Part shown: piece by piece, positions 1,745-15,690 of the stretch
How positions within the stretch are numbered: position 1 is the stretch's first letter
Layout: every line of letters begins with the position of its first letter
Virus record (IMG/VR): IMGVR_UViG_2563366867_000008
Strand: one strand, 5' to 3'
DNA from: a virus
Lineage: Duplodnaviria > Heunggongvirae > Uroviricota > Caudoviricetes
Length of the DNA stretch: 23,271 nt
The notes under the pieces: generated by a model
What the model was told of the DNA's origin: nothing
Databases searched by the model: none
The model's input: only the letters and a program-made list of their open reading frames with translations
Position numbers and translations under genes: made by a program

Positions 1745-2764
1745 TCAGGACAGCACACCAATCGCCAGCGCGCGATCGATAAAACGAAATATCAGCTCCA
1801 GTTGGGAGCCATACTTCTCTTCAAATGCCACGGTATCCGCATGCAGTTCGTCATGGTGTTTTCTGCACAAAGGCAACACAAAAAGGTCATGCGCTTTTGT
1901 TCCCATTCCACCCTGACCGTGACCTATCAGGTGGTGGGGATCATCAGCGGGCTTTCCACAACATGCACACGGCTGTGTCTTAACCCAGCGCGTGTACTTT
2001 TCATTAACCCAGCGGCGACGTTTTGGGCGTAACATAAAAGACTCCGGCGACTCCGGATCCACTTTCAGCGCCAGCACCTTTTTCGCCTTATCCCGGATGA
2101 TGCTGGTGGCAGGAACCGAAGGCACAAGGTCACTTTCCCGGGTAACAGTCGGCACAACAGGCTTCGGTAATCTCAGTGCCTTACGGGCTGCACTTTCCGG
2201 TAAGGCATCCGCCAGATCATTACGAATCAGCCACCAGCACAGTTCCGGCATTGTCACAACGTGACTGTCATCAAAACCGAGATCCCGACGCACAACAGAC
2301 AACACCCAGCGGGCACAGTTATCCGTTGCCCTTGATTCCAGCCGTTCCGTGAACTGATCGCGCAGCTGATTATCGCAGTGCCAGCACAGACGGATTGCAC
2401 CCGGAGCGTGTCGCATTGTGGTCATGTTCTCGCTGTGCCAGTCGGAATGAGGCCACTGGCAGCCTTTTTCACGAAGTAACCAGCTTTCAAGACATTCCAC
2501 GCCACCAGCACGACGGATCACTGCCTCATTGCGGAACACGGCCCGAACGGCAGGATCATCCGCCAGCGGTTGTGATGCCGCCGGAACGGCACCGCTGGCG
2601 AAAGATGAATAACGTTCCGGCTCAGGCTCCAGCAGGACACGCCCCTGCATAAACAGGGGCATCAGCTCTGAACCGGGCCTGAACAATACAATCCCCATAC
2701 GCGGGGCAATTTCAGGGGTCAGCAGTGCTCTCACGGTCACCTCAGCAAACGATATTGAATGCAT
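1745..2764 (-). CDS. DUF968-like prophage protein (Cys/His-rich C-terminal region)
   Basis: 339-aa ORF; C-terminal CACCGKP...HHLIGHGQGGMGTK...CRKHHDELH motif; nin-region position upstream of Q; start shares 4 nt with Q stop region. Confidence 0.5.
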   Translation of the reverse strand: MHSISFAEVTVRALLTPEIAPRMGIVLFRPGSELMPLFMQGRVLLEPEPERYSSFASGAVPAASQPLADDPAVRAVFRNEAVIRRAGGVECLESWLLREKGCQWPHSDWHSENMTTMRHAPGAIRLCWHCDNQLRDQFTERLESRATDNCARWVLSVVRRDLGFDDSHVVTMPELCWWLIRNDLADALPESAARKALRLPKPVVPTVTRESDLVPSVPATSIIRDKAKKVLALKVDPESPESFMLRPKRRRWVNEKYTRWVKTQPCACCGKPADDPHHLIGHGQGGMGTKAHDLFVLPLCRKHHDELHADTVAFEEKYGSQLELIFRFIDRALAIGVLS

Positions 2765-2785
2765 ACAGAGAAAAAAACTCAGTCA

Positions 2786-3043
2786 TCACGCAGTAAACTC
2801 CTTCACCAGTATTTCAAACTGGCTTACCTGTCCTTCCAGTTCCGCCACGCAATCCACCAGCTCATCCACCGCCTTTTGTGTGCGGTGTTTTGCCTGCAGC
2901 AGATCACGAAGCGCCGGAGTAAGCTGCTTGCGGAGCGTATCTTTTTTCACGCTCGTTTTTTCCATCTGTTCAGCACAACGAAGCATCTCCTGCGCCTGCC
3001 GACGAAGTTGTTCCGGTGAAACAGTGATTGTTCTGTTGTTCAA
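2786..3043 (-). CDS. Hypothetical small coiled-coil protein
   Basis: 85-aa ORF whose start overlaps the DnaB-like stop (translational coupling); no recognisable domain. Confidence 0.45.
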   Translation of the reverse strand: MNNRTITVSPEQLRRQAQEMLRCAEQMEKTSVKKDTLRKQLTPALRDLLQAKHRTQKAVDELVDCVAELEGQVSQFEILVKEFTA

Positions 3044-4440
3044 AATAAACGCTCCGTTTTACTGCCCGACATGCGGTTATTGCTGTATCTGCGCGGATTG
3101 CCCGGCGTCATGGGAGTGGAAAGAACCCGGGCACTCTCCTGGTCCACAGGCAGAAAATGTCCGTTATGAAAACGCCGGTAAATGGTCCCGAGTGTGCCAT
3201 TACGCTGTTTCGTGATGTTGATTTCTGCTATGCCTCTGGCCTGTGTATCCGGGTTATACACCTCATCCCTGTAAAGCATCAGAATGATATCGGCATCAGC
3301 CTCTATTTCCCCGGAGTTTTTCAGGTCTGAGTTCATGGGACGTTTATTGGGTCTGGATTCCACGCCTCGGGAGAGCTGGCTCAGAGCAATCAGCGGGAAA
3401 CCGCCGGATTTTGCCAGGCTTTTAAGTCCCTTTGAGATTTCCCCCACAGCAAGGTCGTGACGCCCCGTGCTGCGGGTTTTAATCAGACCGAGGTAATCGA
3501 CCACCACCAGCGCCGTTTCCGGGTGTTTCATCCGGTGGTGCTTCGTGGTTGCACATATCTCATCAATGGTCAGGTTTGCCTGATCCACCATCCAGATATT
3601 ACGCCCCGTCATTCGTCCCACGCCCTGCGAGAAACGCGCCCAGTCTTCATCTTCAAAACGGGCAACAGACTTAAGACGGGATACCGGCATTCCACCGGCA
3701 GCAGACACCATACGTTCACCAATCTGGATGTTCGCCATCTCCATGGTGAACAGAAGCACGCCATGCCCCTGCTCAGTCACCTTGTCGATGATGTCCAGCG
3801 CAAGTTCGGTTTTCCCCATCGAAGGACGGGCGGCAATGAATACCAGGTCTCCGGGCTCCATACCGCCCGTTTTTGCGTCCAGTTCATCAATACCGGTCAT
3901 CAGCGCCCTGGATTTCTCCAGTCCCTGATTGCGGCATTCAACACGGTCGACCACTTCCGGAAGGACATCATCAATGTGAACCGGCTGAATGACGCCCTTT
4001 CCGGTCGACAGTGAGGCCATCATGTTCTGCACATCCTTCAGGGCATCCTCGGCTGCTTCACAGGTATACGCATCACGTAAATTCTGTAATGCTTCAGTCA
4101 GTGTTTTTTCTGCATCGCGCAGTGCGGCATTGCGCCGCAACGCTGCGACATAGTGCTCCAGTGAAGACTTCACCCAGGTTTTGCGTCCGGTGTCGGTAAT
4201 CACCGGGGCAAGTTCCGGCATCTCATTGCACAGCAGTACGGGGTCAATGACGCCGGATATGCTAGCCTGTCTGCAAATCCCCGCGTAAATATCCCGGTAC
4301 TGACGCACAAAAAATACATCCGCCGGAAGTGTGGCCAGAATATCCATCACTTCCGGATCGGCCCCACGCAGAAAAAACGCACCGATGACAGCGCCTTCCA
4401 GGTCATCGTTACGCCATGCCGGGGTGTTCTGGCTGGTCAT
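3040..4440 (-). CDS. Replicative DNA helicase, DnaB family
   Basis: 466 aa; Walker A ARPSMGKTE, Walker B-like region and overall DnaB-like layout; start overlaps upstream stop. Confidence 0.85.
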   Translation of the reverse strand: MTSQNTPAWRNDDLEGAVIGAFFLRGADPEVMDILATLPADVFFVRQYRDIYAGICRQASISGVIDPVLLCNEMPELAPVITDTGRKTWVKSSLEHYVAALRRNAALRDAEKTLTEALQNLRDAYTCEAAEDALKDVQNMMASLSTGKGVIQPVHIDDVLPEVVDRVECRNQGLEKSRALMTGIDELDAKTGGMEPGDLVFIAARPSMGKTELALDIIDKVTEQGHGVLLFTMEMANIQIGERMVSAAGGMPVSRLKSVARFEDEDWARFSQGVGRMTGRNIWMVDQANLTIDEICATTKHHRMKHPETALVVVDYLGLIKTRSTGRHDLAVGEISKGLKSLAKSGGFPLIALSQLSRGVESRPNKRPMNSDLKNSGEIEADADIILMLYRDEVYNPDTQARGIAEINITKQRNGTLGTIYRRFHNGHFLPVDQESARVLSTPMTPGNPRRYSNNRMSGSKTERLF

Positions 4441-6494: not shown

Positions 6495-6685
6495 GGACGC
6501 ACCTCCGCCGTAGTTACGTATTTAACCGGGCTACCTTTCATTGAGATGGTTTCACACATCTCTGCCGCTTTCAGTTCCGCTGTTTTTCTGGATTTATAGC
6601 GACGGTGCCAGACAGATACATCCGTGCGAACTGATACATCGTTTCTGTATTCCGTAGTGGAGATGATGATTTCGTAACTAATCAT
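6491..6685 (-). CDS. Hypothetical protein
   Basis: 64-aa ORF translationally coupled on both sides. Confidence 0.4.
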   Translation of the reverse strand: MISYEIIISTTEYRNDVSVRTDVSVWHRRYKSRKTAELKAAEMCETISMKGSPVKYVTTAEVRP

Positions 6686-7245
6686 GGGCGAACCTCCTTG
6701 TCAGAACCATTCAGCCTAGAATCAACAAGTGCAGCGCCAAAAACAGCATCACCAACACGGTCGTACAGTTTGCTAGCCAGCGGAGATTCAACGGCCTTAA
6801 GCATTGGATAAAGCTGGCTTGTCCAGATTTGATGGATTTCACGCAAATGCAGGTATACGCCTCTGGCGTTTCGTGCGACAGCTGACATATCAGACGCATC
6901 GGCACCTGATAAACTCTTCTCCATCAGGTTAAAGGCGTTGATGTATGCCTCTTTGAACCGGGCAGCACGTTTACCCGTGAAACCCATAGCAAGAAATGCA
7001 AAACCGTCTCGTGTGATTTGATAGCAAGGGAGCTTGCGTGTACCGCCGTTCGGTTGATTTACCGAAATCGATGTCTCCGCAAAATTGCGGGCACAAAACT
7101 CTGGAGAACAATCCAAAATGCGAATCTTTTTCAGAACATCGTCATGACGTTTAGAGAAGAAGTCAGCAACAGCCAAAGAAGATGTAACAGCCTGACCATC
7201 AACGATGGCAATTTCAGGTTGAGAGAGGGTTGGGAGAGTAGTCAT
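6682..7245 (-). CDS. Rha-family phage regulatory protein (second copy); start uncertain
   Basis: Rha-like motif IAIVDGQAVTSSLAVADFFSKRHDDVLKKI begins ~10 aa after internal Met at 7245; the longest ORF extends to 7548 but that 100-aa extension covers a hairpin-rich, terminator-like region. Confidence 0.6.
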   Translation of the reverse strand: MTTLPTLSQPEIAIVDGQAVTSSLAVADFFSKRHDDVLKKIRILDCSPEFCARNFAETSISVNQPNGGTRKLPCYQITRDGFAFLAMGFTGKRAARFKEAYINAFNLMEKSLSGADASDMSAVARNARGVYLHLREIHQIWTSQLYPMLKAVESPLASKLYDRVGDAVFGAALVDSRLNGSDKEVRP

Positions 7246-7631
7246 AGTGACAGCCCCGGTAGTCAGTTTTTTAGAAAACTCACCACATGGGACGCCAATC
7301 ACAGAGGTGGTGAGACGTACAGGGTTGGCGTTACCGGAGACTACCGAACCCGGCCCGACCGAAGTCGGCCCTGTACGCCCCACCATAATTTGGGCGTAGC
7401 AATGCTCATGACACGAAAAAACCGCATGAGCGCGGTTATGCTCAGTAATCAATTTCAGGACGCCAATCCCGGCACCCGCTTTATAAGGTGCGGAGACAGT
7501 GTAACGTCCCGAAATTGCAGAATCAATATTTGGTCTTGAAATGATCATATAGCTGCTGATATCTTTAGAACTGTTCTTGGATGTTTCGGAGCCGTTTTAT
7601 GCGAAACAGCTCCCCGTTATTGATGTTGAGT

Positions 7632-7657: not shown

Positions 7658-8364
7658 CACCGCTGCCAACCAATAACCTGAAATAACCCCATTTTCGGGT
7701 GATACCAGCGAGTCCCTCGCGGTTCTGCTTCCTCCATAACCCGATAAAAAGCAGCCATAAACGGTTCCACAGCAACAATTGCGCGACGTGACAACAATCC
7801 GTCCGGCGTCATGAACTCATGGGTGTCTGTAGGAATCTGATAGGCGTTCACCAGATTGCGGCATTTATCATCTGACAAACCGGTTTTTGCTTTCAGTTGG
7901 CGATATCCGGCATAGCCCTCACGAATAGTGCCCTTTTTAATTTGCTCGACTGTTTCAGCAACGTGGCTGACTTTTTCTTCCACCTGAGTGATCCGTTTCT
8001 GCTGACGAACTGCTTCAAGAGCCATCGCGGCAACCATTTCGATTTCGCTCATTGGCTTACGGATCTGTTCTTCCAGTTCGCGCCAGCGATCTACCAGGCG
8101 AGCAGTGAATTCAGGACAGAGCTGTGCGACGACAATGATGCTGTCGCGCTTACCTTGTTCTCCTTCAAACAGGTAATGCTCATATTGAACTTTAAAACCT
8201 AAGTTATTGATTCTTTCGGAAACCTCAATTTGAGGAGACCGGACAACGCCACCTTTGGCTAATGTTTCAATAGTGCGTTTCACATTGTCATGACGTTTAC
8301 CCACCAGCTCTGCAATTTCAACGCTGGTCATGGATGCTTTGCCGTTAAAAATTGCGGTGTTCAT
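7657..8364 (-). CDS. Rha-family phage regulatory protein (antirepressor-like)
   Basis: 235 aa; N-terminal MTSVEIAELVGKRHDNVKRTIETL Rha signature; strong RBS AGGAGA 8 nt upstream. Confidence 0.8.
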   Translation of the reverse strand: MNTAIFNGKASMTSVEIAELVGKRHDNVKRTIETLAKGGVVRSPQIEVSERINNLGFKVQYEHYLFEGEQGKRDSIIVVAQLCPEFTARLVDRWRELEEQIRKPMSEIEMVAAMALEAVRQQKRITQVEEKVSHVAETVEQIKKGTIREGYAGYRQLKAKTGLSDDKCRNLVNAYQIPTDTHEFMTPDGLLSRRAIVAVEPFMAAFYRVMEEAEPRGTRWYHPKMGLFQVIGWQR

Positions 8365-8588
8365 TGTTGGTCTCCTGTGGGCTTGTCATCTTCTGTATTC
8401 GCTAGACTTGGGTGTGTATATGGAATGCTCGTATCCAGATGACAAAGAATGGCAACATCCTCCGGAACACCTCGCGTTTTCCACTTTCCAACACCTTGAC
8501 TGCCACGAGGCCTTCCTTTCTTTGGGAACCTGCGACCAATAGCGGCATTGGTTTTAAATTGAATTTTTAATATTTCATAAAGGGTCAT
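8361..8588 (-). CDS. Hypothetical small basic protein in the cro position (doubtful)
   Basis: 75-aa ORF, ATGA overlap with Rha gene, weak RBS, low-complexity K/R/G/P-rich composition; no HTH recognised. Confidence 0.25.
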   Translation of the reverse strand: MTLYEILKIQFKTNAAIGRRFPKKGRPRGSQGVGKWKTRGVPEDVAILCHLDTSIPYTHPSLANTEDDKPTGDQQ

Positions 8589-8599
8589 TCTTTAGTCTC

Positions 8600-8680
8600 A
8601 CACCAGATACTTTGTTATCCAACGATGTTAACCACAGGAACCCAAAGTATCAAGAAATTCTGTTACTTTAGTATCAACAG
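8600..8680. promoter_or_regulatory. Right operator/divergent promoter region (OR-like)
   Basis: AGTATCAA half-sites at 8646-8653 and 8668-8675, inverted GATACTTTG at 8606-8614; lies between the cI-like start and the minus-strand early operon. Confidence 0.6.
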
Positions 8681-8699
8681 CCATGAGAGGAGAAGAAAA

Positions 8700-9356
8700 A
8701 TGAAGTCTTTAGGTGAACGTCTCATCAACGCACGGCAAAAAGCTGGGTTAACACAAGATGCGTTGGCTAAAAAAGCTGGGGTCACCAGAGTTGCAATCAG
8801 TAAAGCCGAGCAAGGCCTTACAAAAAGTTTCAACGGTGACACCCTTTTTAAAGTTGCAGCTGCACTGCAGTGTTCACCGCAGTGGCTTCAGAACGGAGAT
8901 GAAAAAGATAAGCATTGGGAAAATAATGTTAAGAGCTGCCCACAGAGAGACACAGCATACTCTTACCCTGTAATTAACTGGGTTCAGGCAGGATTATTCG
9001 CAACTTCTGGTGATGACTACAACATGTATGATCAGGATAATTGGAGGCATTCTGTAAAATACGCTGGTGAGAGGGGGTTCTGGCTGGAAGTGCACGGAGA
9101 CTCAATGACTTCGCCCGTAGGAATAACATTTCCTGAAGGAATGTCGATCCTTGTCAACCCAGATAAAGAAGTTTTTTCAGGGTGTTACGTCATCGCCAGA
9201 AAAAAATCTACCAATGAAGCAACATTCAAAAAATATATTTCTGAAATGGGAAAGGCGTTTCTAAAGCCCCTTAATCCACAATATCCAATCATAGAAATGG
9301 ACAATGATTGCGAAATAGTAGGTGTTGTGGTTGATGCCAGGTGGGATATTTTCTAA
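8700..9356 (+). CDS. cI-type repressor (N-terminal HTH-XRE, C-terminal S24 LexA-like autopeptidase)
   Basis: Start at internal ATG with RBS GAGAGGAGAAG; HTH LTQDALAKKAGVTRVAISKAE; GDSM serine and downstream Lys typical of S24. Confidence 0.85.
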   Translation: MKSLGERLINARQKAGLTQDALAKKAGVTRVAISKAEQGLTKSFNGDTLFKVAAALQCSPQWLQNGDEKDKHWENNVKSCPQRDTAYSYPVINWVQAGLFATSGDDYNMYDQDNWRHSVKYAGERGFWLEVHGDSMTSPVGITFPEGMSILVNPDKEVFSGCYVIARKKSTNEATFKKYISEMGKAFLKPLNPQYPIIEMDNDCEIVGVVVDARWDIF

Positions 9357-9379
9357 CCAGACACAAAACACAAAAAGAA

Positions 9380-9456
9380 ACCAAAGTATCAAAAATCACT
9401 TGCCACACCTTGATACCTTAGTTACCATAAAACAAAGTTCGTAACTGAGGTATCAT
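9380..9456. promoter_or_regulatory. Left operator/promoter region (OL/PL-like)
   Basis: AAAGTATCAA (9382-9392) and inverted TTGATACCTT (9410-9419), GGTATCA at 9449-9455, plus GTTAC...GTAAC inverted repeat; same half-site as the OR region. Confidence 0.6.
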
Positions 9457-9459
9457 CTC

Positions 9460-9876
9460 ATGATCAATAAAGCTACAACTCTTGACTGTCTCGAAGAACT
9501 GAAAAACCTCGGCAGCCTCATTACACTAATAGCAAAAGCAACACCTGATGCTACGCTCTCTAGCGATATAGAGTCATGCGCAGGACTGGCATGGGATATG
9601 ACAAATAGCATATCCAGAAAGCTATCGTCAGCAATGCTTTTACAGAACAAAAATTCTGCAATCAACAACCGTCTTCGCACCCAACGCGAAGCCTGCGGCT
9701 TAACAACCGCCGAACTCGCCAGGCTGCTCGATCTCGATGAAGAAATTATCATCCAGTGGGAGAGCGGAGAGTATGAACCAACTATCAGTATGCTTATCCC
9801 ACTGGCAAATATTCTTGGCTGCGATCCGATGTGGCTGTTAACTGGCGAAACGGCAGCAAAGGATATCTGCGCATGA
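9460..9876 (+). CDS. HTH-XRE DNA-binding protein (C-terminal HTH), first gene of the PL-side operon
   Basis: 138 aa; LTTAELARLLDLDEEIIIQWESGEYEPT HTH; occupies the position of N but has no arginine-rich motif. Confidence 0.7.
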   Translation: MINKATTLDCLEELKNLGSLITLIAKATPDATLSSDIESCAGLAWDMTNSISRKLSSAMLLQNKNSAINNRLRTQREACGLTTAELARLLDLDEEIIIQWESGEYEPTISMLIPLANILGCDPMWLLTGETAAKDICA

Positions 9877-10115
9877 AAAACTGTGATGCTTACCATATTT
9901 GTCTCATTGGTGAATTGCTTGATTTCATACAAAAAAGCACTGCGCGCAATAATAAAAATATAACATATGGTGATCTGGTAATAATTTCAGAGGATATAAA
10001 GAGCATCGCTCTTAAATTCAAGAGCGACGCGAGTATTGATGACGCTATTTACGCTTATCTTGCGAAAATAATTGACGGATCCAAAATCCAGCCTCTGGAT
10101 GAACCTCGTCAGTGA
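9873..10115 (+). CDS. Hypothetical protein coupled to the HTH gene
   Basis: 80 aa from ATG at 9873 (ATGA overlap with upstream stop); AT-rich codon usage; 3' end overlaps a convergent ORF. Confidence 0.4.
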   Translation: MKNCDAYHICLIGELLDFIQKSTARNNKNITYGDLVIISEDIKSIALKFKSDASIDDAIYAYLAKIIDGSKIQPLDEPRQ

Positions 10116-10272
10116 AAAACTCCTTTGATGAAGATGAGAACTGCTTCATAAACTTTACTTTATCTTCAGGTGAAACTACCTGACGAATTAATGCGGAGAT
10201 AGCAACTTTGTGCCAAATTAATTCTTTTTTGAGTTCTGAAATCTCTTTTTCGAGTTGCTCTGCGTTAATCAT
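10045..10272 (-). CDS. Hypothetical coiled-coil protein, own promoter, opposite to PL transcription
   Basis: 75 aa; strong RBS GGAGGA 4-5 nt upstream of ATG. Confidence 0.55.
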   Translation of the reverse strand: MINAEQLEKEISELKKELIWHKVAISALIRQVVSPEDKVKFMKQFSSSSKEFFTDEVHPEAGFWIRQLFSQDKRK

Positions 10273-10451
10273 TTATCCTCCATTGAGAGCTGAATTGAAA
10301 ATGGGGACCAACACGCGGCTACGTGTGGTCGTGCGCCGGACACGGATAAGCATCCGGTAACTGATTATCAATCATTGCGGAAACAGTCTCAATATGAAAA
10401 CACTTCTGAGACTCGCTATATAGCAGGACATATAAGTCAGCTGAGGAAGCC

Positions 10452-10817
10452 ATGAAAAAGTTCGAAAACATAACTGTTCTCCATGTTGATGACTTTGATT
10501 ATACAAACCCGGAACTTCTCCCGGAGGTTGTAAAGGCAATAGATGTTGCCGATATAGTGATTAGAGGAAAGAGAATTGTCAAAAACAGGCTCGCATGCAC
10601 TTCAGAAGCAATGACAGAAACAACCTCACAGCAAGATAATTACGAAGGCATTTGTCTGGAGCCTGATTCATTTGCGGTAAATGTTTATCATTTATTGCAT
10701 GCAACACAGGTATTACATATGTCCAGTAATCACGAAACGAAAACACTCGGCAGCGAAATTCTGAATTTTGCATGTGAGTATGCAAAAACTGCTGCCGAAA
10801 AAGAATTAGCGCAATAA
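10452..10817 (+). CDS. Hypothetical protein
   Basis: 121 aa; RBS GAGGAAG; divergent from the 10045-10272 gene across a palindrome-rich 180-bp spacer. Confidence 0.55.
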   Translation: MKKFENITVLHVDDFDYTNPELLPEVVKAIDVADIVIRGKRIVKNRLACTSEAMTETTSQQDNYEGICLEPDSFAVNVYHLLHATQVLHMSSNHETKTLGSEILNFACEYAKTAAEKELAQ

Positions 10818-10895
10818 CAACAAATATGCTCTGAACGTTTATTGCGGTTTTATCGCCGGGGATTGTTACAATCTTAATCCACAGGAGGATTTATT

Positions 10896-11009
10896 ATGAC
10901 TTTTATAAAGAATATGGCATCACACAAGACCGCCTGTCTTATTGCACAATACGGTGAAAATTACATGCATATTGCCTGCTTATTTCTGCGTAAAGCATAC
11001 GGGAAATAA
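10896..11009 (+). CDS. Small ORF (37 aa) with strong RBS
   Basis: AGGAGG 7 nt upstream of ATG; below the 60-aa cutoff of the ORF track; translated manually. Confidence 0.3.
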   Translation: MTFIKNMASHKTACLIAQYGENYMHIACLFLRKAYGK

Positions 11010-11012
11010 CAA

Positions 11013-11372
11013 ATGACACATGAACCCATTAATACATATCGTCGCCGTATAGCTGTTGCAGCACTCCATCGAATAAAACGTAAAACAGGTGGTGATCTGC
11101 TTATTGTTGACCTTCTGGATGGGAACATTACGACCATAGAAATAACAGAACAGTTTATAAACCAGTTGCTGTTGCGCTTTGAAGATATTACCCGTGGTGA
11201 ATTGGGTCGAGTGGAGGGTGAAACAGAATTCCGAACTGCATACCAGAATGCCATCGGGATTAATCAACATACTGAATACCAGGCTGAAACCGGAAAGTTA
11301 ATTATAGACAACCTTTTACAAGAGGTTATTGATTACGCGAAAGAAAAATATATCAGCGGAGGAATTAACTGA
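11013..11372 (+). CDS. Hypothetical protein
   Basis: 119-aa ORF, first of four tightly packed same-strand ORFs. Confidence 0.5.
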   Translation: MTHEPINTYRRRIAVAALHRIKRKTGGDLLIVDLLDGNITTIEITEQFINQLLLRFEDITRGELGRVEGETEFRTAYQNAIGINQHTEYQAETGKLIIDNLLQEVIDYAKEKYISGGIN

Positions 11373-11587
11373 TGGCTAATTTATCCCCTGTATCTGTTGT
11401 GCACGAAAAAGTGCAGATCGTTATGACAATTGAAAATGGCCAGGTAACAGATGTCTGCAAAGTCCGCGATGGAGAGCTGATTGCCAGCATGGATACATTC
11501 ATATGGCTGGCAGAAAGAGCGGGGTATCAGATAACAGCACCTGCTCAGGAGGAAACCAGTGACATTAACAGCAACGCGAATTCCTGA
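11372..11587 (+). CDS. Hypothetical protein
   Basis: 71 aa; RBS GGAGG; start overlaps upstream stop. Confidence 0.5.
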   Translation: MANLSPVSVVHEKVQIVMTIENGQVTDVCKVRDGELIASMDTFIWLAERAGYQITAPAQEETSDINSNANS

Positions 11588-11777
11588 GTGGGTCCACCAG
11601 CAGGCGTTGCTGGTCCTGCGGCGGTACAGATGCCGACGTATATTCCCGCATCGGATACAGCGCAACGGATATCTCAGTCTGAAGGTTAACCGTCGCTGGC
11701 GGCTGTTATCGAAAGACGACGGCCGGAACTGGGAAATAATGAGTCATGAACGTTATTCGGGAGAAATAAAGAAATGA
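11559..11777 (+). CDS. Hypothetical basic protein (GTG start)
   Basis: 72 aa; AGGAGG 6 nt upstream of GTG. Confidence 0.45.
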   Translation: MTLTATRIPEWVHQQALLVLRRYRCRRIFPHRIQRNGYLSLKVNRRWRLLSKDDGRNWEIMSHERYSGEIKK

Positions 11778-12166
11778 TCGACAACCGCACCGCCAGCGCC
11801 ATTGACCAGGCATTACAGAAACATGATACACCCGTCGGCCCGTTATTTTTTGTAACACATCACGGAAGAACAAAAAAATGCCTCACTCGAAAAACGGCAA
11901 TTCGTTACCTGGCATTCTTTATGACCACCCGCGCTTTTGAACGTTCAGGATTCCGACAACGCCATCCTGACAAGCGTTTTATCTTCAACGGGAATGAAAT
12001 ATGGAAACGTGGAGAATCAACCACAGAGTACACCCGCGCACACCAGCGAACAATCAGACGACTGCGCAGACTCATCGCCAGGAAACAGTATACAGAAAAA
12101 TGGTTCAGAAAATATGACACATGGAGCGCCGGATATTACGAACTGATGGCAACAAAACCATTCTGA
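11774..12166 (+). CDS. Hypothetical basic protein
   Basis: 130 aa; ATGA overlap with upstream gene. Confidence 0.5.
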   Translation: MIDNRTASAIDQALQKHDTPVGPLFFVTHHGRTKKCLTRKTAIRYLAFFMTTRAFERSGFRQRHPDKRFIFNGNEIWKRGESTTEYTRAHQRTIRRLRRLIARKQYTEKWFRKYDTWSAGYYELMATKPF

Positions 12167-12226
12167 CGTAAACGAAATTAACCATGACGCAATTAAATAA
12201 GGCAAGCTGAATACAGCAGGAGGACC

Positions 12227-12415
12227 ATGAACATTTATTTCAGAATAGTTATATCACTGGCAATTATCGCATGTATTTACGGATTGCTCGTCCCGTTTCT
12301 GATATCAATGAAGGATACGGTAGCGGTGATTTCTGGCTTTGCACTGACGTTTCTAACCCCGCCATGTATTTATACCATTTATAAGGGGCTTTCTTTCACT
12401 AAGGATAAAAGATGA
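12227..12415 (+). CDS. Small membrane protein (two predicted TM helices)
   Basis: 62 aa, hydrophobic; RBS AGGAGG; stop overlaps start of SPFH gene (ATGA). Confidence 0.6.
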   Translation: MNIYFRIVISLAIIACIYGLLVPFLISMKDTVAVISGFALTFLTPPCIYTIYKGLSFTKDKR

Positions 12416-13239
12416 AAAAAATTATTTTTTCTTTAGCCATTGTTCTGCCTGCCATTGGCCTTGTCGGTTGTGATCGTGTTGAGCCTGGTAATGTGGGCAT
12501 CAAAGTCAACAAACTTGGCGACGACAAAGGCGTCGGTGAAGTGGTCGGTGTTGGTCGCTACTGGACAGGCTGGAACACTGAAGTTTATATCTTCCCGACC
12601 TTTAAGCAGATGAAGACCTACGATGATCCATTCAGTTTCCAGATGAGCGATGGAACAACCATTGGTTACCACATCGGAGTAGCCTACAAGGTTGATCCAT
12701 CCAAAGTTACCACAGTCTTTCAGACCTACCGCAAAGGCGTGGACGACATTACCGACACCGACCTGCGCCAGAAGATAGCCGACGCACTCAACCGACTGGC
12801 CAGCAAAATGACCACCGACAAATTTATCGACGGCGGCAAGTCTGAGCTGCTGGATGCAGCTCTTAAAGACATTCAGGAAGAAATGACGCCCATCGGTATT
12901 CAGGTAATAAGCCTCTCATATGTGGGTAAGCCGGAGTACCCGCCTACTGTTATCGACAGCATTAATGCCAAAGTCACGGCGAACCAGAAAACTCTGCAAC
13001 GCGAGCAGGAAGTAAAACAGCGCGAAGCGGAAGCCAACATGTTGCGCGCGGAAGCTGCCGGACAGGCTGATGCGATTCGCACAAAAGCCCAGGCTGAAGC
13101 CGATGCTATTCGTTTACGCGGTGAAGCTCTGCGTCAGAACCCCGGTGTTATGGAGCTGGAAGCCATCAATAAATGGAACGGCACGCTGCCGCAATACATG
13201 ACCAGCGGTGCCAATACACCATTTATCCAGGTTAAATAA
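12412..13239 (+). CDS. SPFH/band-7 (prohibitin/stomatin-like) lipoprotein with C-terminal Ala/Glu-rich coiled coil
   Basis: 275 aa; signal peptide with lipobox LVGC; SPFH-like core; RBS AAGGA. Confidence 0.7.
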   Translation: MKKIIFSLAIVLPAIGLVGCDRVEPGNVGIKVNKLGDDKGVGEVVGVGRYWTGWNTEVYIFPTFKQMKTYDDPFSFQMSDGTTIGYHIGVAYKVDPSKVTTVFQTYRKGVDDITDTDLRQKIADALNRLASKMTTDKFIDGGKSELLDAALKDIQEEMTPIGIQVISLSYVGKPEYPPTVIDSINAKVTANQKTLQREQEVKQREAEANMLRAEAAGQADAIRTKAQAEADAIRLRGEALRQNPGVMELEAINKWNGTLPQYMTSGANTPFIQVK

Positions 13240-13310
13240 CTTAATATGCCCGGCAGGCCGTCGGGCTAAGGGAAAAGCAGATAAACACTCATAATACTCA
13301 ACCGCAAATA

Positions 13311-13652
13311 ATGAACTATGACCCAAATCTGACGTCATGCGGACGCATGGCGAAACAAACCGTTCGATTAACTTTCGGGCAATGGGAATACCGCGAAACA
13401 TTCGAAGTCACTGTCGGTGGCAACCTGACCGGACTCGATGTTATCAGTTGCGCTATTGAAAGCCTGTACGCAACGCTGCCTTATGAAGAAGTCGAGGATG
13501 AGCGTACAGGGGAAACAGATATCATGGCCACCATTAATATTGGCGAACTGACATGCCAGGATGAAGACCTGTCCGGAGAGCTCTGGCTTGCCGGGATGCT
13601 TATCTCAGCAGAAATTATCAGTATTGAACCCGCTACAAACATACGGCTCTGA
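13311..13652 (+). CDS. Hypothetical acidic protein (start uncertain, possibly 13347)
   Basis: 113-aa ORF, no recognised domain. Confidence 0.4.
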   Translation: MNYDPNLTSCGRMAKQTVRLTFGQWEYRETFEVTVGGNLTGLDVISCAIESLYATLPYEEVEDERTGETDIMATINIGELTCQDEDLSGELWLAGMLISAEIISIEPATNIRL

Positions 13653-13683
13653 AGTTCTCACTATTCAGAGAGCAGGAGAAAAA

Positions 13684-13926
13684 ATGTTCGCTTTGATTAA
13701 TCAGGGACAACTGTATACCGACAGTGCCGGTTACCCGGTAATAATTATTCGCTGCATAAACAACACTGTGTTGTACAGAAGAATTGATGGGCGAACACAG
13801 TCAGTAAAAATAAACGATTTCAATGAACTGTTTGAACGGATTGATCACCAGGAATACCGACAAATTCTGGCAGAAACAGAGCAGGAGGCTCATCTGAAAA
13901 AATTACGGGCCATGAAAAGGAAGTAA
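13684..13926 (+). CDS. Hypothetical protein
   Basis: 80 aa from internal ATG with RBS AGGAG; longer ORF from 13561 less likely. Confidence 0.45.
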   Translation: MFALINQGQLYTDSAGYPVIIIRCINNTVLYRRIDGRTQSVKINDFNELFERIDHQEYRQILAETEQEAHLKKLRAMKRK

Positions 13927-13929
13927 AGA

Positions 13930-14076
13930 ATGAATAAAGCGTTTGAGCTATGGGTGCGCCAGCGTTACGGCAATCGCTATGACCTGACGCGAGATGTTGA
14001 CGGCTTCTACTGTCGTGAAATTGTGAAACGAATGTTTGAAGTGTGGTGCCACTGCCGTGGGCTGAGTGTTGTGTGA
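13930..14076 (+). CDS. Small Cys-containing protein (48 aa)
   Basis: RBS AAGGAAG; manually translated; immediately precedes putative xis. Confidence 0.35.
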   Translation: MNKAFELWVRQRYGNRYDLTRDVDGFYCREIVKRMFEVWCHCRGLSVV

Positions 14077-14084
14077 GGTAATAC

Positions 14085-14321
14085 ATGGGCAATGTGATTC
14101 AACTGGCTCCCAATGAATGGGTTTGTGAAAGCGTTCTTATCGCAATTACCGGGCTCAAACCAGGCACAATTCTTCGGGCCCGGAAAGAATGCTGGATGGT
14201 TGGAAGAGAGTATATTCACGTATCACCAGACGGTAATCCAAAGCCTTCCAGTGAATGTATGTATAACAGAAAAGCAATAGATGCCTGGGTCGCCTCAATG
14301 AAAAACAAACAACCCAGGTGA
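14085..14321 (+). CDS. Putative excisionase
   Basis: 78 aa directly upstream of integrase in the same orientation; assignment is positional, sequence not confidently matched to a family. Confidence 0.45.
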   Translation: MGNVIQLAPNEWVCESVLIAITGLKPGTILRARKECWMVGREYIHVSPDGNPKPSSECMYNRKAIDAWVASMKNKQPR

Positions 14322-14376
14322 TTTAATATCATGAAATATGTAAGCTCGTATCGCTCTTGGGCGTCTGGAGGTATCG

Positions 14377-15690
14377 ATGGATAAAGTCAAATATCCAACA
14401 GGCGTCGAAAACCACGGCGGCACATTACGCATCTGGTTTAATTTTAAAGGTAAACGTGTCAGGGAAAATCTTGGTGTCCCTGACACTGCCAAGAACAGGA
14501 AGATCGCCGGGGAACTGCGGACATCAGTATGTTTTGCCATCCGCACAGGAAGCTTTGATTATGCTGCACAGTTCCCTGACTCCCCCAACCTTCAGGCTTT
14601 TGGGGTAAGTAAAAAAGAAATTACGGTGAAGGAACTTGAAGAAAAGTGGCTGGATCTGAAACGAATGGAAATCTCTGCAAATGCATTCAATCGCTATGAA
14701 TCCGTTGCAAGAACGATGGTTCCGAAAATTGGAGGCAGTAAACTGGTGTCATCGGTAACCAAAGAGGAATTGCTGTATATCAGGAAAGATTTGCTGACCG
14801 GGTATCAGAATTCAACGAAAAACAAAGCAGCAGCAAAAGGACGGAGCGTCGTTACTGTAAATTATTACATGACGACAATCGCTGGAATGTTTCAGTTTGC
14901 TGCAGATCACGGTTACTTAGAAGCAAATCCCTTCCAGGGAATTAAGCCTCTTAAAAGAGCCAGGGCAGAGCCAGATCCGCTAACTCGTGACGAATTTATT
15001 CGCCTGATAGATGCTTGCCGACATCAGCAGACGAAAAACCTGTGGTCATTGGCTGTGTACACAGGAATGCGTCACGGTGAACTGGTCTCCCTGGCCTGGG
15101 AAGATATCGATCTGAAGGCAGGAACAATTACCATCAGGCGCAATTATACGAAACTTGGTGAGTTCACTCTACCGAAAACTGAAGCAAGCACAAACAGGGT
15201 TGTGCACCTTATCCAGCCCGCTATCAGTGTCCTGAAAAATCAGGCTGAAATGACAAGACTGGGTAAGCAGTACAACATCAAGGTGCAACTACGTGAATAT
15301 GGACGTTCAGTGAACCATGAATGTACTTTCGTGTTTAACCCTCAAGTGGTTAGAAAAAGCGAACAGGTAGGTTTTGTCTACAAAGTCGATTCTGTAGGTG
15401 ACTCATGGGAAACAGCCATTAAGCGTGCAGGGATCAGGCATCGAAAGGCATACCAGTCACGACACACTTATGCGTGCTGGTCATTATCTGCCGGAGCAAA
15501 CCCAAGCTTCATTGCCAGCCAGATGGGCCATGCAAGTGCCCAGATGGTATTCAATGTATACGGAGCATGGATGACTGACAGCAATGCAGAACAGATCGCA
15601 ATGCTGAATCAGAAGCTGACAGATTATGTCCCAATGATGCCCCATAGTCACCAAAGTGACACCAGAGGCTTATTAAAATCAGTAAGTTAA
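14377..15690 (+). CDS. Tyrosine integrase (lambda Int family)
   Basis: 437 aa; RBS GGAGG; C-terminal catalytic region with R...HxxR...Y-type residues (RHTYACWSLSAGANPSFIASQMGHASAQMVFNVY); abuts disrupted host gene. Confidence 0.85.
   Translation: MDKVKYPTGVENHGGTLRIWFNFKGKRVRENLGVPDTAKNRKIAGELRTSVCFAIRTGSFDYAAQFPDSPNLQAFGVSKKEITVKELEEKWLDLKRMEISANAFNRYESVARTMVPKIGGSKLVSSVTKEELLYIRKDLLTGYQNSTKNKAAAKGRSVVTVNYYMTTIAGMFQFAADHGYLEANPFQGIKPLKRARAEPDPLTRDEFIRLIDACRHQQTKNLWSLAVYTGMRHGELVSLAWEDIDLKAGTITIRRNYTKLGEFTLPKTEASTNRVVHLIQPAISVLKNQAEMTRLGKQYNIKVQLREYGRSVNHECTFVFNPQVVRKSEQVGFVYKVDSVGDSWETAIKRAGIRHRKAYQSRHTYACWSLSAGANPSFIASQMGHASAQMVFNVYGAWMTDSNAEQIAMLNQKLTDYVPMMPHSHQSDTRGLLKSVS

Follow-up and report, generated by a model that had tools for sequence, protein, structure and literature searches.

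What does a lambdoid prophage encode between its repressor and its integrase when the recombination and kil-type genes usual at this position are absent? The question is raised by the virus record IMGVR_UViG_2563366867_000008 (Caudoviricetes), a stretch of 23,271 nucleotides, called here at its full length the window, in which positions 10,896 to 12,166 carry five small open reading frames (ORFs). A preliminary description of this DNA had found none of the five products recognisable and considered that they may be host-takeover or anti-defence proteins. The five ORFs, named o37, o119, o71, o72 and o130 after the lengths of their products, prove to be genes that are gained and lost independently of one another, and o72 encodes a small protein predicted to have the fold of RelE/ParE-superfamily toxins. 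The block is tentatively read as a set of independently assorting early accessory genes in which o72 would act alone, as a RelE-like effector directed at translation once the prophage is derepressed; a probability of roughly 0.45 is assigned to this statement as a whole.

All five ORFs lie on the plus strand, with the lengths and positions previously given for them. The first, o37 (10896..11009), codes for a basic protein of 37 amino acids (aa; isoelectric point, pI, 9.45) belonging to a conserved family, and the strong Shine-Dalgarno sequence AGGAGG reported for it is present at 10883..10888, 7 nt before the ATG at 10896. It is separated by three non-coding bases from o119 (11013..11372; 119 aa), whose mildly acidic product (pI 5.4) is assigned to phrog_1737, the “Fels-1 prophage protein” family. 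From here on the genes overlap, by 1 nt between o119 and o71, 29 nt between o71 and o72, and 4 nt between o72 and o130. The acidic o71 protein (11372..11587; 71 aa, pI 4.3) belongs to phrog_340, and GGAGG is located 5' of its gene. The Shine-Dalgarno sequence AGGAGG of o72 (11559..11777; 72 aa, phrog_1525) lies within the o71 coding sequence at 11547..11552, 6 nt 5' of the GTG start codon at 11559. The block ends with o130 (11774..12166; 130 aa, phrog_1886). The products of the last two genes are very basic, as had been noticed, with pI values of 11.3 and 10.8.

Public databases already contain all five proteins, and one of them, o72, belongs to a named Pfam family. It matches PF24732 (ParE_like, “ParE-like toxin domain”) with E = 1.6e-17 and 63.7 bits, against a cut-off of 24.4, over residues 10–66 of the protein and positions 1–65 of the 67-position model, and the same domain is precomputed in 56/56 close homologues. 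RefSeq names the protein “ParE family toxin-like protein,” while homologues in some phage records are called “mRNA interferase,” “HigB-like protein” or “putative toxin antitoxin system protein.” The statement that none of the products is recognisable therefore fails for o72, but it stands for the function of the other four, of which o119, o71 and o130 are recognised only as members of PHROG families. No sequence-level match of o72 to any solved PDB chain, and hence to any solved toxin, was found. The predicted structure displays the RelE/ParE superfamily fold, an antiparallel beta-sheet against an N-terminal helix, superposable on solved toxins, and by this model o72 is a minimal RelE/ParE-superfamily toxin-fold protein. 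Profile searches and structure prediction, the check suggested in the preliminary description, thus returned a toxin fold for o72, and for o119 a model without specific fold match.

Seven residues of o72 (P9, L20, W47, R48, G55, W58, and Y66) do not vary among 91 distinct homologues, and H63 is shared by 90 of them. In the model R48 is located on strand beta3, with H63 and Y66 right after beta4, and these positions resemble what we take to be the catalytic sets of RelE and YoeB. Compared with the ribosome-dependent mRNA interferases RelE, HigB, YoeB, and YafQ, which in the fold matches comprise 84–121 aa, o72 is shorter and, unlike them, has one helix between beta1 and beta2. Those enzymes are type II toxins, whereas o72 is encoded in a phage early operon with no conserved adjacent antitoxin.

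The GTG start of o72 is backed by the conserved N-terminal sequence MTLTAIRIPEW, by the formation of strand beta1 and the helix from this N terminus in the confident predicted model, and by the AGGAGG placed 6 nt upstream. In more than 1000 contig records, including loci L124–L126, the gene is instead annotated as a 40-aa (or 37-aa) product starting from an ATA codon. The DNA of the 40-aa records, including the GTG and the AGGAGG, is identical to that of the window, so that these entries represent a systematic miscall of the start codon; a widespread truncation of the toxin, which the 40-aa ParE-like proteins might seem to represent, is rejected for the same reason.

The remaining evidence comes from homologous loci assembled from four sources: contigs encoding three close relatives of the o72 protein; genomes taken one per species (34 loci); IMG/VR viral contigs anchored on o72, of which the best 80 of at least 580 carrying its relatives were used; and IMG/VR viral contigs anchored on o130 (best 80 of 407). 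Each of the five ORFs has dozens of distinct homologues. The median pN/pS (the ratio of nonsynonymous to synonymous differences) relative to the window copy is 0.35 for o37, 0.47 for o119, 0.49 for o71, 0.31 for o72, and 0.38 for o130, and because the uncorrected synonymous divergence of 0.6–0.84 is near saturation, these values understate the constraint. By these substitution patterns, all five ORFs are genuine genes under purifying selection.

It is very improbable that some or all of the small ORFs, above all o37, are chance ORFs or regulatory DNA. For o37 such a view could invoke the missing annotation by RefSeq (Prokaryotic Genome Annotation Pipeline, PGAP) in strain ZH063 and in Fels-1, as well as the lack of a PHROG, Pfam, or NCBIfam family, but homologues from different genera, 35–62% identical to the window protein, retain its length (35–37 aa), its start and the C-terminal motif LRKAYG at an uncorrected synonymous divergence of about 0.84, which is near saturation, and the ORF is preceded by a strong AGGAGG. 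The family ends in L(F/Y)LRKAYG(K/R) and has the invariant residues A13, A27, L31, A34, Y35, and G36. BLAST clustering places its homologues in 24/38 genome loci, and a hidden Markov model recovers them in nearly all of the approximately 200 loci. The ORF had been described as unannotated; this is correct for the ZH063 chromosome (100% identical) as annotated by RefSeq and for the Fels-1 record, but not for phage PhiR49_2, where it is annotated as XSB43068.1, and the exact protein is found on at least 1000 contigs. In Fels-1 (locus L040) the unannotated homologue, at 3186–3290, has 59% identity and lies directly 5' of STM0898.4n.

The gene order o37-(c5)-o119-(o71)-o72-(o130, c16, c18, or c7) recurs in almost all of the approximately 200 loci, which are Enterobacterales prophages, and the cassette lies 3' of a cI-type repressor and 5' of an integrase. 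Precisely the gene arrangement of the window is seen in 33/118 and 41/80 fetched loci. In phages phiP27 and PhiR49_2 the DNA common with the window ends at the o37 stop codon, and different genes then follow.

Within this order the five genes assort independently, each being present or absent without the others. Among the o130-anchored loci, o72 is missing from 14/80 with its neighbours kept, and o71 is present in 52/66 loci with o72 and in 11/14 without it, which corresponds to an odds ratio of about 1; since many of these loci are near-identical Escherichia coli prophages, the numbers are not independent. In 30 loci o119 directly abuts or overlaps the o72 start (0–4 nt) with no o71 between them, and five genome loci, from Klebsiella, Serratia, and Cedecea, contain o72 with neither o119 nor o71. 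The gene after o72 is o130 in about 60% of loci; elsewhere its place is taken by the unrelated c16, c18, or c7. In loci L019 and L022 (about 2620–3029) the o119 homologues end in the C-terminal tail of o71 (...GTDCDTNS), which indicates a deletion that joined o119 to the end of o71 while the ribosome-binding site and start of o72 were kept.

More distant relatives of o72 have other neighbours still. In Serratia phage OS31 a ParB-like gene is located beside the homologue. In Escherichia phage vB-Eco-KMB41 (Murrayvirus; L207, 800–1036), whose record has no annotated integrase, the homologue lies directly 5' of holin, lysozyme, and endopeptidase genes, and is preceded by an unrelated 120-aa ORF. 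A 95-kb phage carries an unrelated 121-aa ORF beside its homologue. Overall, the upstream neighbour may be o71, o119, a ParB-like gene, or one of several unrelated ORFs of 72, 77, 120, and 121 aa. Two Serratia prophage loci (L036 and L038) have the unrelated 72-aa ORF 5' of the o72 homologue, and it yields only chance-level matches of helix-turn-helix (HTH) type (E = 0.03–0.06).

The block is carried by a lambdoid prophage of the Fels-1/phiP27 kind, which is integrated into the E. coli chromosome at yecE. Positions 10800–12300 of the window are 100% identical to several E. coli chromosomes, for example that of ZH063, and matches to this region occur in 271/5426 complete E. coli genomes. Around the block the ZH063 annotation lists replication genes, Rha-family regulators, a cro-like gene and a divergent LexA-family repressor, and on its 3' side an SPFH-domain protein, DUF5406, DUF4222, an excisionase, and an integrase adjoining yecE/yecN. 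In the window the repressor gene cI (8625–9356) lies 5' and the integrase gene int (14377–15690) 3' of the block, which is on the same strand as cI and precedes xis/int; the early-left position previously assigned to it is thereby confirmed. The reported absence of Exo/Bet/Gam/Kil-type genes was also borne out: no ORF from cI to int matches these families, or Erf/RecT, in Pfam, NCBIfam, or PHROGs, and the homology to such proteins that had been named as the finding to speak against a host-directed function was not encountered.

The regulatory setting is suggested by motifs flanking cI. GATAC...GTATC-type motifs and a ACCAAAGTATCAA repeat are common to 8606–8656, between cro and cI, and to 9370..9455 on the plus strand, directly after cI; the two regions are probably OR and OL, respectively. 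The latter also contains a promoter-like TTGCCA-17-TACCAT at 9400–9428 and a 15-nt inverted repeat at 9411–9455, and we infer that it represents an OL/pL from which the block would be transcribed. Signals belonging to the block itself were not detected. In 8300–14500 a consensus search found 12 promoter-like sites against 11.3 in shuffled sequences, no terminator-like site on the plus strand was found within the block, and the fold of the 78-nt leader 5' of o37 is unremarkable (z = 0.11), so that a promoter, terminator or structured leader of its own is rejected. A scan with Rfam revealed no RNA family inside the block.

With no promoter of its own and with operator-like sites beside cI, the block would be silent in the lysogen, and its products would be made only after induction or infection. 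Given the invariant R48 and Y66, the near-invariant H63 and the lack of a fixed neighbour, o72 would most likely be a solitary RelE-like effector. Such an antitoxin-less protein would cut or stall translated mRNA early in lytic growth, in host takeover or regulation rather than as an addiction module, and its translation would be coupled to whichever ORF precedes it. A protein of lytic development is favoured by the combination of a repressor-controlled operon, a homologue in a phage whose record lists no integrase, and strongly conserved putative active-site residues. The proteins o37, o119, o71, and o130 would be separate early accessory products, with a status like that of the lambda genes ea and those between exo and xis. 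A host-takeover or anti-defence role for o72, a toxin-fold protein with no conserved partner, is plausible, although nothing in the analysis points specifically to anti-defence. In a bolder version, the o72 family, with homologues in temperate phages as well as in the one with no annotated integrase, would comprise widespread antitoxin-less miniature RelE-type nucleases. Enterobacterial phages, restraining them by repressor rather than by antitoxin, would use them early in infection to halt or redirect translation in the host, and o119, o71, and o130 would be unrecognised modulators or further host-directed effectors; this version appears unlikely.

Several points weigh against o72 as a solitary effector. 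The searchable literature yielded mentions of the family at annotation level and no functional study of any of the five proteins, be it of expression, toxicity, or nuclease activity. An unspecific mRNA interferase would strike phage transcripts as well. In these prophages an acidic protein gene, o71 or o119, always lies directly 5' of o72 and overlaps its start, and a small acidic ORF overlapping the start of a toxin gene is the classic antitoxin–toxin layout. The conserved gene order may reflect common descent only. The argument from catalytic residues is built on conservation and on position in the model rather than on residue-level superposition, and the promoter scan was a crude consensus search.

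The same layout is the starting point of the main competing explanation, considered unlikely, in which a type II toxin–antitoxin pair is formed by o72, as the toxin, and o71 (or o119, in loci that lack o71), as a swappable antitoxin, and serves prophage stabilisation or abortive infection directed at other phages. It accounts for the RelE/ParE toxin fold and for the small acidic ORFs that are translationally coupled to o72 from the 5' side, whether by 29 nt in the case of o71 or by 0–4 nt in that of o119. Prophage-borne ParE/RelE modules such as PaaR2-PaaA2-ParE2 are known, and so are orphan antitoxins left after toxin loss, which is what Fels-1 would exemplify. A type II module, however, has its cognate antitoxin invariably adjacent, and the o72 loci show no single conserved partner: the frequency of o71 is alike with and without o72, the five genome loci and the three distant phages contain o72 homologues with neither o119 nor o71, in the phages beside unrelated genes, and cassettes of the Fels-1 type keep both o119 and o71 yet lack o72. 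Neither o71 nor o119 has a DNA-binding domain of the ribbon-helix-helix, HTH, AbrB, or Phd type by Pfam and PDB profile search, nor does o119 by fold search. The placement of o72 inside a repressor-controlled early operon with no dedicated promoter signal in the crude scan, together with its homologue in a phage that has no annotated integrase, also argues for a function other than that of a self-contained module.

The names given by Pfam and RefSeq would make o72 a ParE-type DNA gyrase poison that arrests host replication. On fold scores, toxins of the RNase type and of the gyrase-poison type are not told apart, and RNase-type toxins score at least as well as ParE toxins. Unlike the ParE toxins PrpT and ParE2, the latter from the prophage-borne PaaA2-ParE2 pair of E. 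coli O157:H7 (5czf), o72 has neither a PaaA2- or ParD-type antitoxin nor a PaaR-type regulator beside it, and gyrase poisoning is regarded as improbable. Equally improbable is the proposal that o72 has the shape of a toxin without its catalytic activity and serves as a decoy, in anti-defence or in regulation, which would for example occupy the ribosomal A site or titrate a host antitoxin or protease, with neighbours that are likewise anti-defence genes. The early accessory region of temperate phages, where such genes are frequent, would suit it, as would the lack of a fixed partner and a size below that of the solved toxins matched; there is, however, no match to a PADLOC or anti-defence family, and the strong conservation of an Arg/His/Tyr set speaks for a catalytic role or for a site of precise binding. 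The solitary RelE-like effector remains the preferred reading of o72.

For the four other proteins, sequence and profile comparison detects no relative with known function. No match of o37 was found in Pfam, NCBIfam, PHROGs, PADLOC, or PDB. Its protein is expected to be helical, like the ANR small regulators (NF033650), and its start aligns, non-significantly, with residues 1–30 of ANR proteins, but it is about half as long as these; with an hhalign probability of 3.9%, and no NF033650 match for o37 or two of its relatives, a truncated ANR regulator is rejected. ANR small regulators themselves (NF033650, E = 1e-13 and 4e-12) are encoded in the Serratia prophage loci L036–L038, about +155 to +780 after distant o72 homologues.

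A profile search with o119 yielded 133 relatives, none with a Pfam domain. Its predicted model (predicted local distance difference test score, pLDDT, 85.8) comprises a helix, a beta-hairpin and three helices, with no specific fold match in PDB or BFVD. The o71 protein, which occurs as two subtypes across the loci, matches phrog_340 with E = 2e-25 and has no PDB or Pfam relative; it also resembles the C terminus of an anti-repressor PHROG (E = 5.6e-5) as well as DUF7613 (E = 0.017), but both similarities are too weak and partial to be accepted. The match of o130 to phrog_1886 is stronger (E = 6e-59), and when 1.84 billion representative proteins were searched exhaustively, only 45 related clusters emerged, none with a domain; no relative was found in Pfam, NCBIfam, or PDB. 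A CrpP-related match of o130 (E = 0.1) was rejected, as was an assignment to SmpB, which is matched by two relatives at E of about 0.009, below the cut-off, because the family profile found no SmpB among PDB chains. Sequence and profile searches of PDB with all five families produced chance matches only (polyubiquitin repeats, FGF8, a cupin, and a K+ channel), and PADLOC gave no significant match for any of the five ORFs, REase_II being hit by o119 at chance level (E = 0.0076).

A close known counterpart of the block is found in Salmonella phage Fels-1, where genes STM0898.4n to STM0898.1n and the ORF preceding them correspond to o37-c5-o119-o71-o130 in the same order, with identities to the window of 54% for o119 and 57% for o130. 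Fels-1 has no ParE-like gene, o130 coming straight after o71, whereas the window lacks c5; in its record the early-left genes are all designated “hypothetical protein.” A more general likeness links the block to the ea genes and exo-xis region of lambda, which occupy the same position between repressor and xis/int and are likewise small, dense, mosaic, non-essential-looking, and mostly of unknown function. Unlike them, however, the block has no sequence relationship to any lambda gene, and homologues of Exo, Bet, Gam, and Kil are absent from it.

Several other features of the prophage deserve mention. Between cI and an L08-like gene, region 9460–10272 contains a gene for a 138-aa HTH protein, which matches the HTH parts of the PADLOC models RmrA and CapH and a CII-like PHROG, and a convergent 75-aa gene on the minus strand with its own terminator-like hairpin at 10003–10030. 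The two genes form a variable islet, PhiR49_2 having a different gene (“L10”) at this place. Directly 3' of the block, region 12227–13239 encodes a 62-aa membrane protein (phrog_1130) and an SPFH/Band-7 lipoprotein (HflK/C-like). Part of this pair has 87.7% DNA identity to genes of P1-like phages, and its absence from the otherwise syntenic loci L124 and L125 marks it as moron-like cargo. Inside or beside the Rha-family gene at 6682–7548 on the minus strand, Rfam detects a C4 antisense RNA (7303–7390, minus strand; 82 bits) and the Hfq-binding RNA isrK (7415–7491, minus strand; 59 bits), which suggests P1/P7-type antisense control of an antirepressor in a lambdoid prophage. At the late-gene end of the window, the small RNA STnc100 (Rfam, 134 bits) and three tRNA genes, named Arg, Arg, and Ile by RefSeq, are located at 362–551 and 630–876 on the minus strand.

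In practical terms, the analysis adds o37 as a real gene that is skipped in the two RefSeq records examined, and identifies o72 as mis-started, as a 40-aa product from ATA, in more than 1000 contig records. It also defines, together with their synteny, four conserved families of unknown function as candidates for toxicity and anti-defence screens. In other respects the block is the usual mosaic accessory cargo of a lambdoid prophage, in which the recurring cassette and the lack of a fixed partner for its toxin-fold gene are of mild interest. If o72 is an active, partner-less RelE-like nuclease curbed only by prophage repression, a toxin fold would be serving as a weapon of the lytic phase instead of an addiction module, and this would offer a way into a gene family that at least 580 IMG/VR viral contigs carry.

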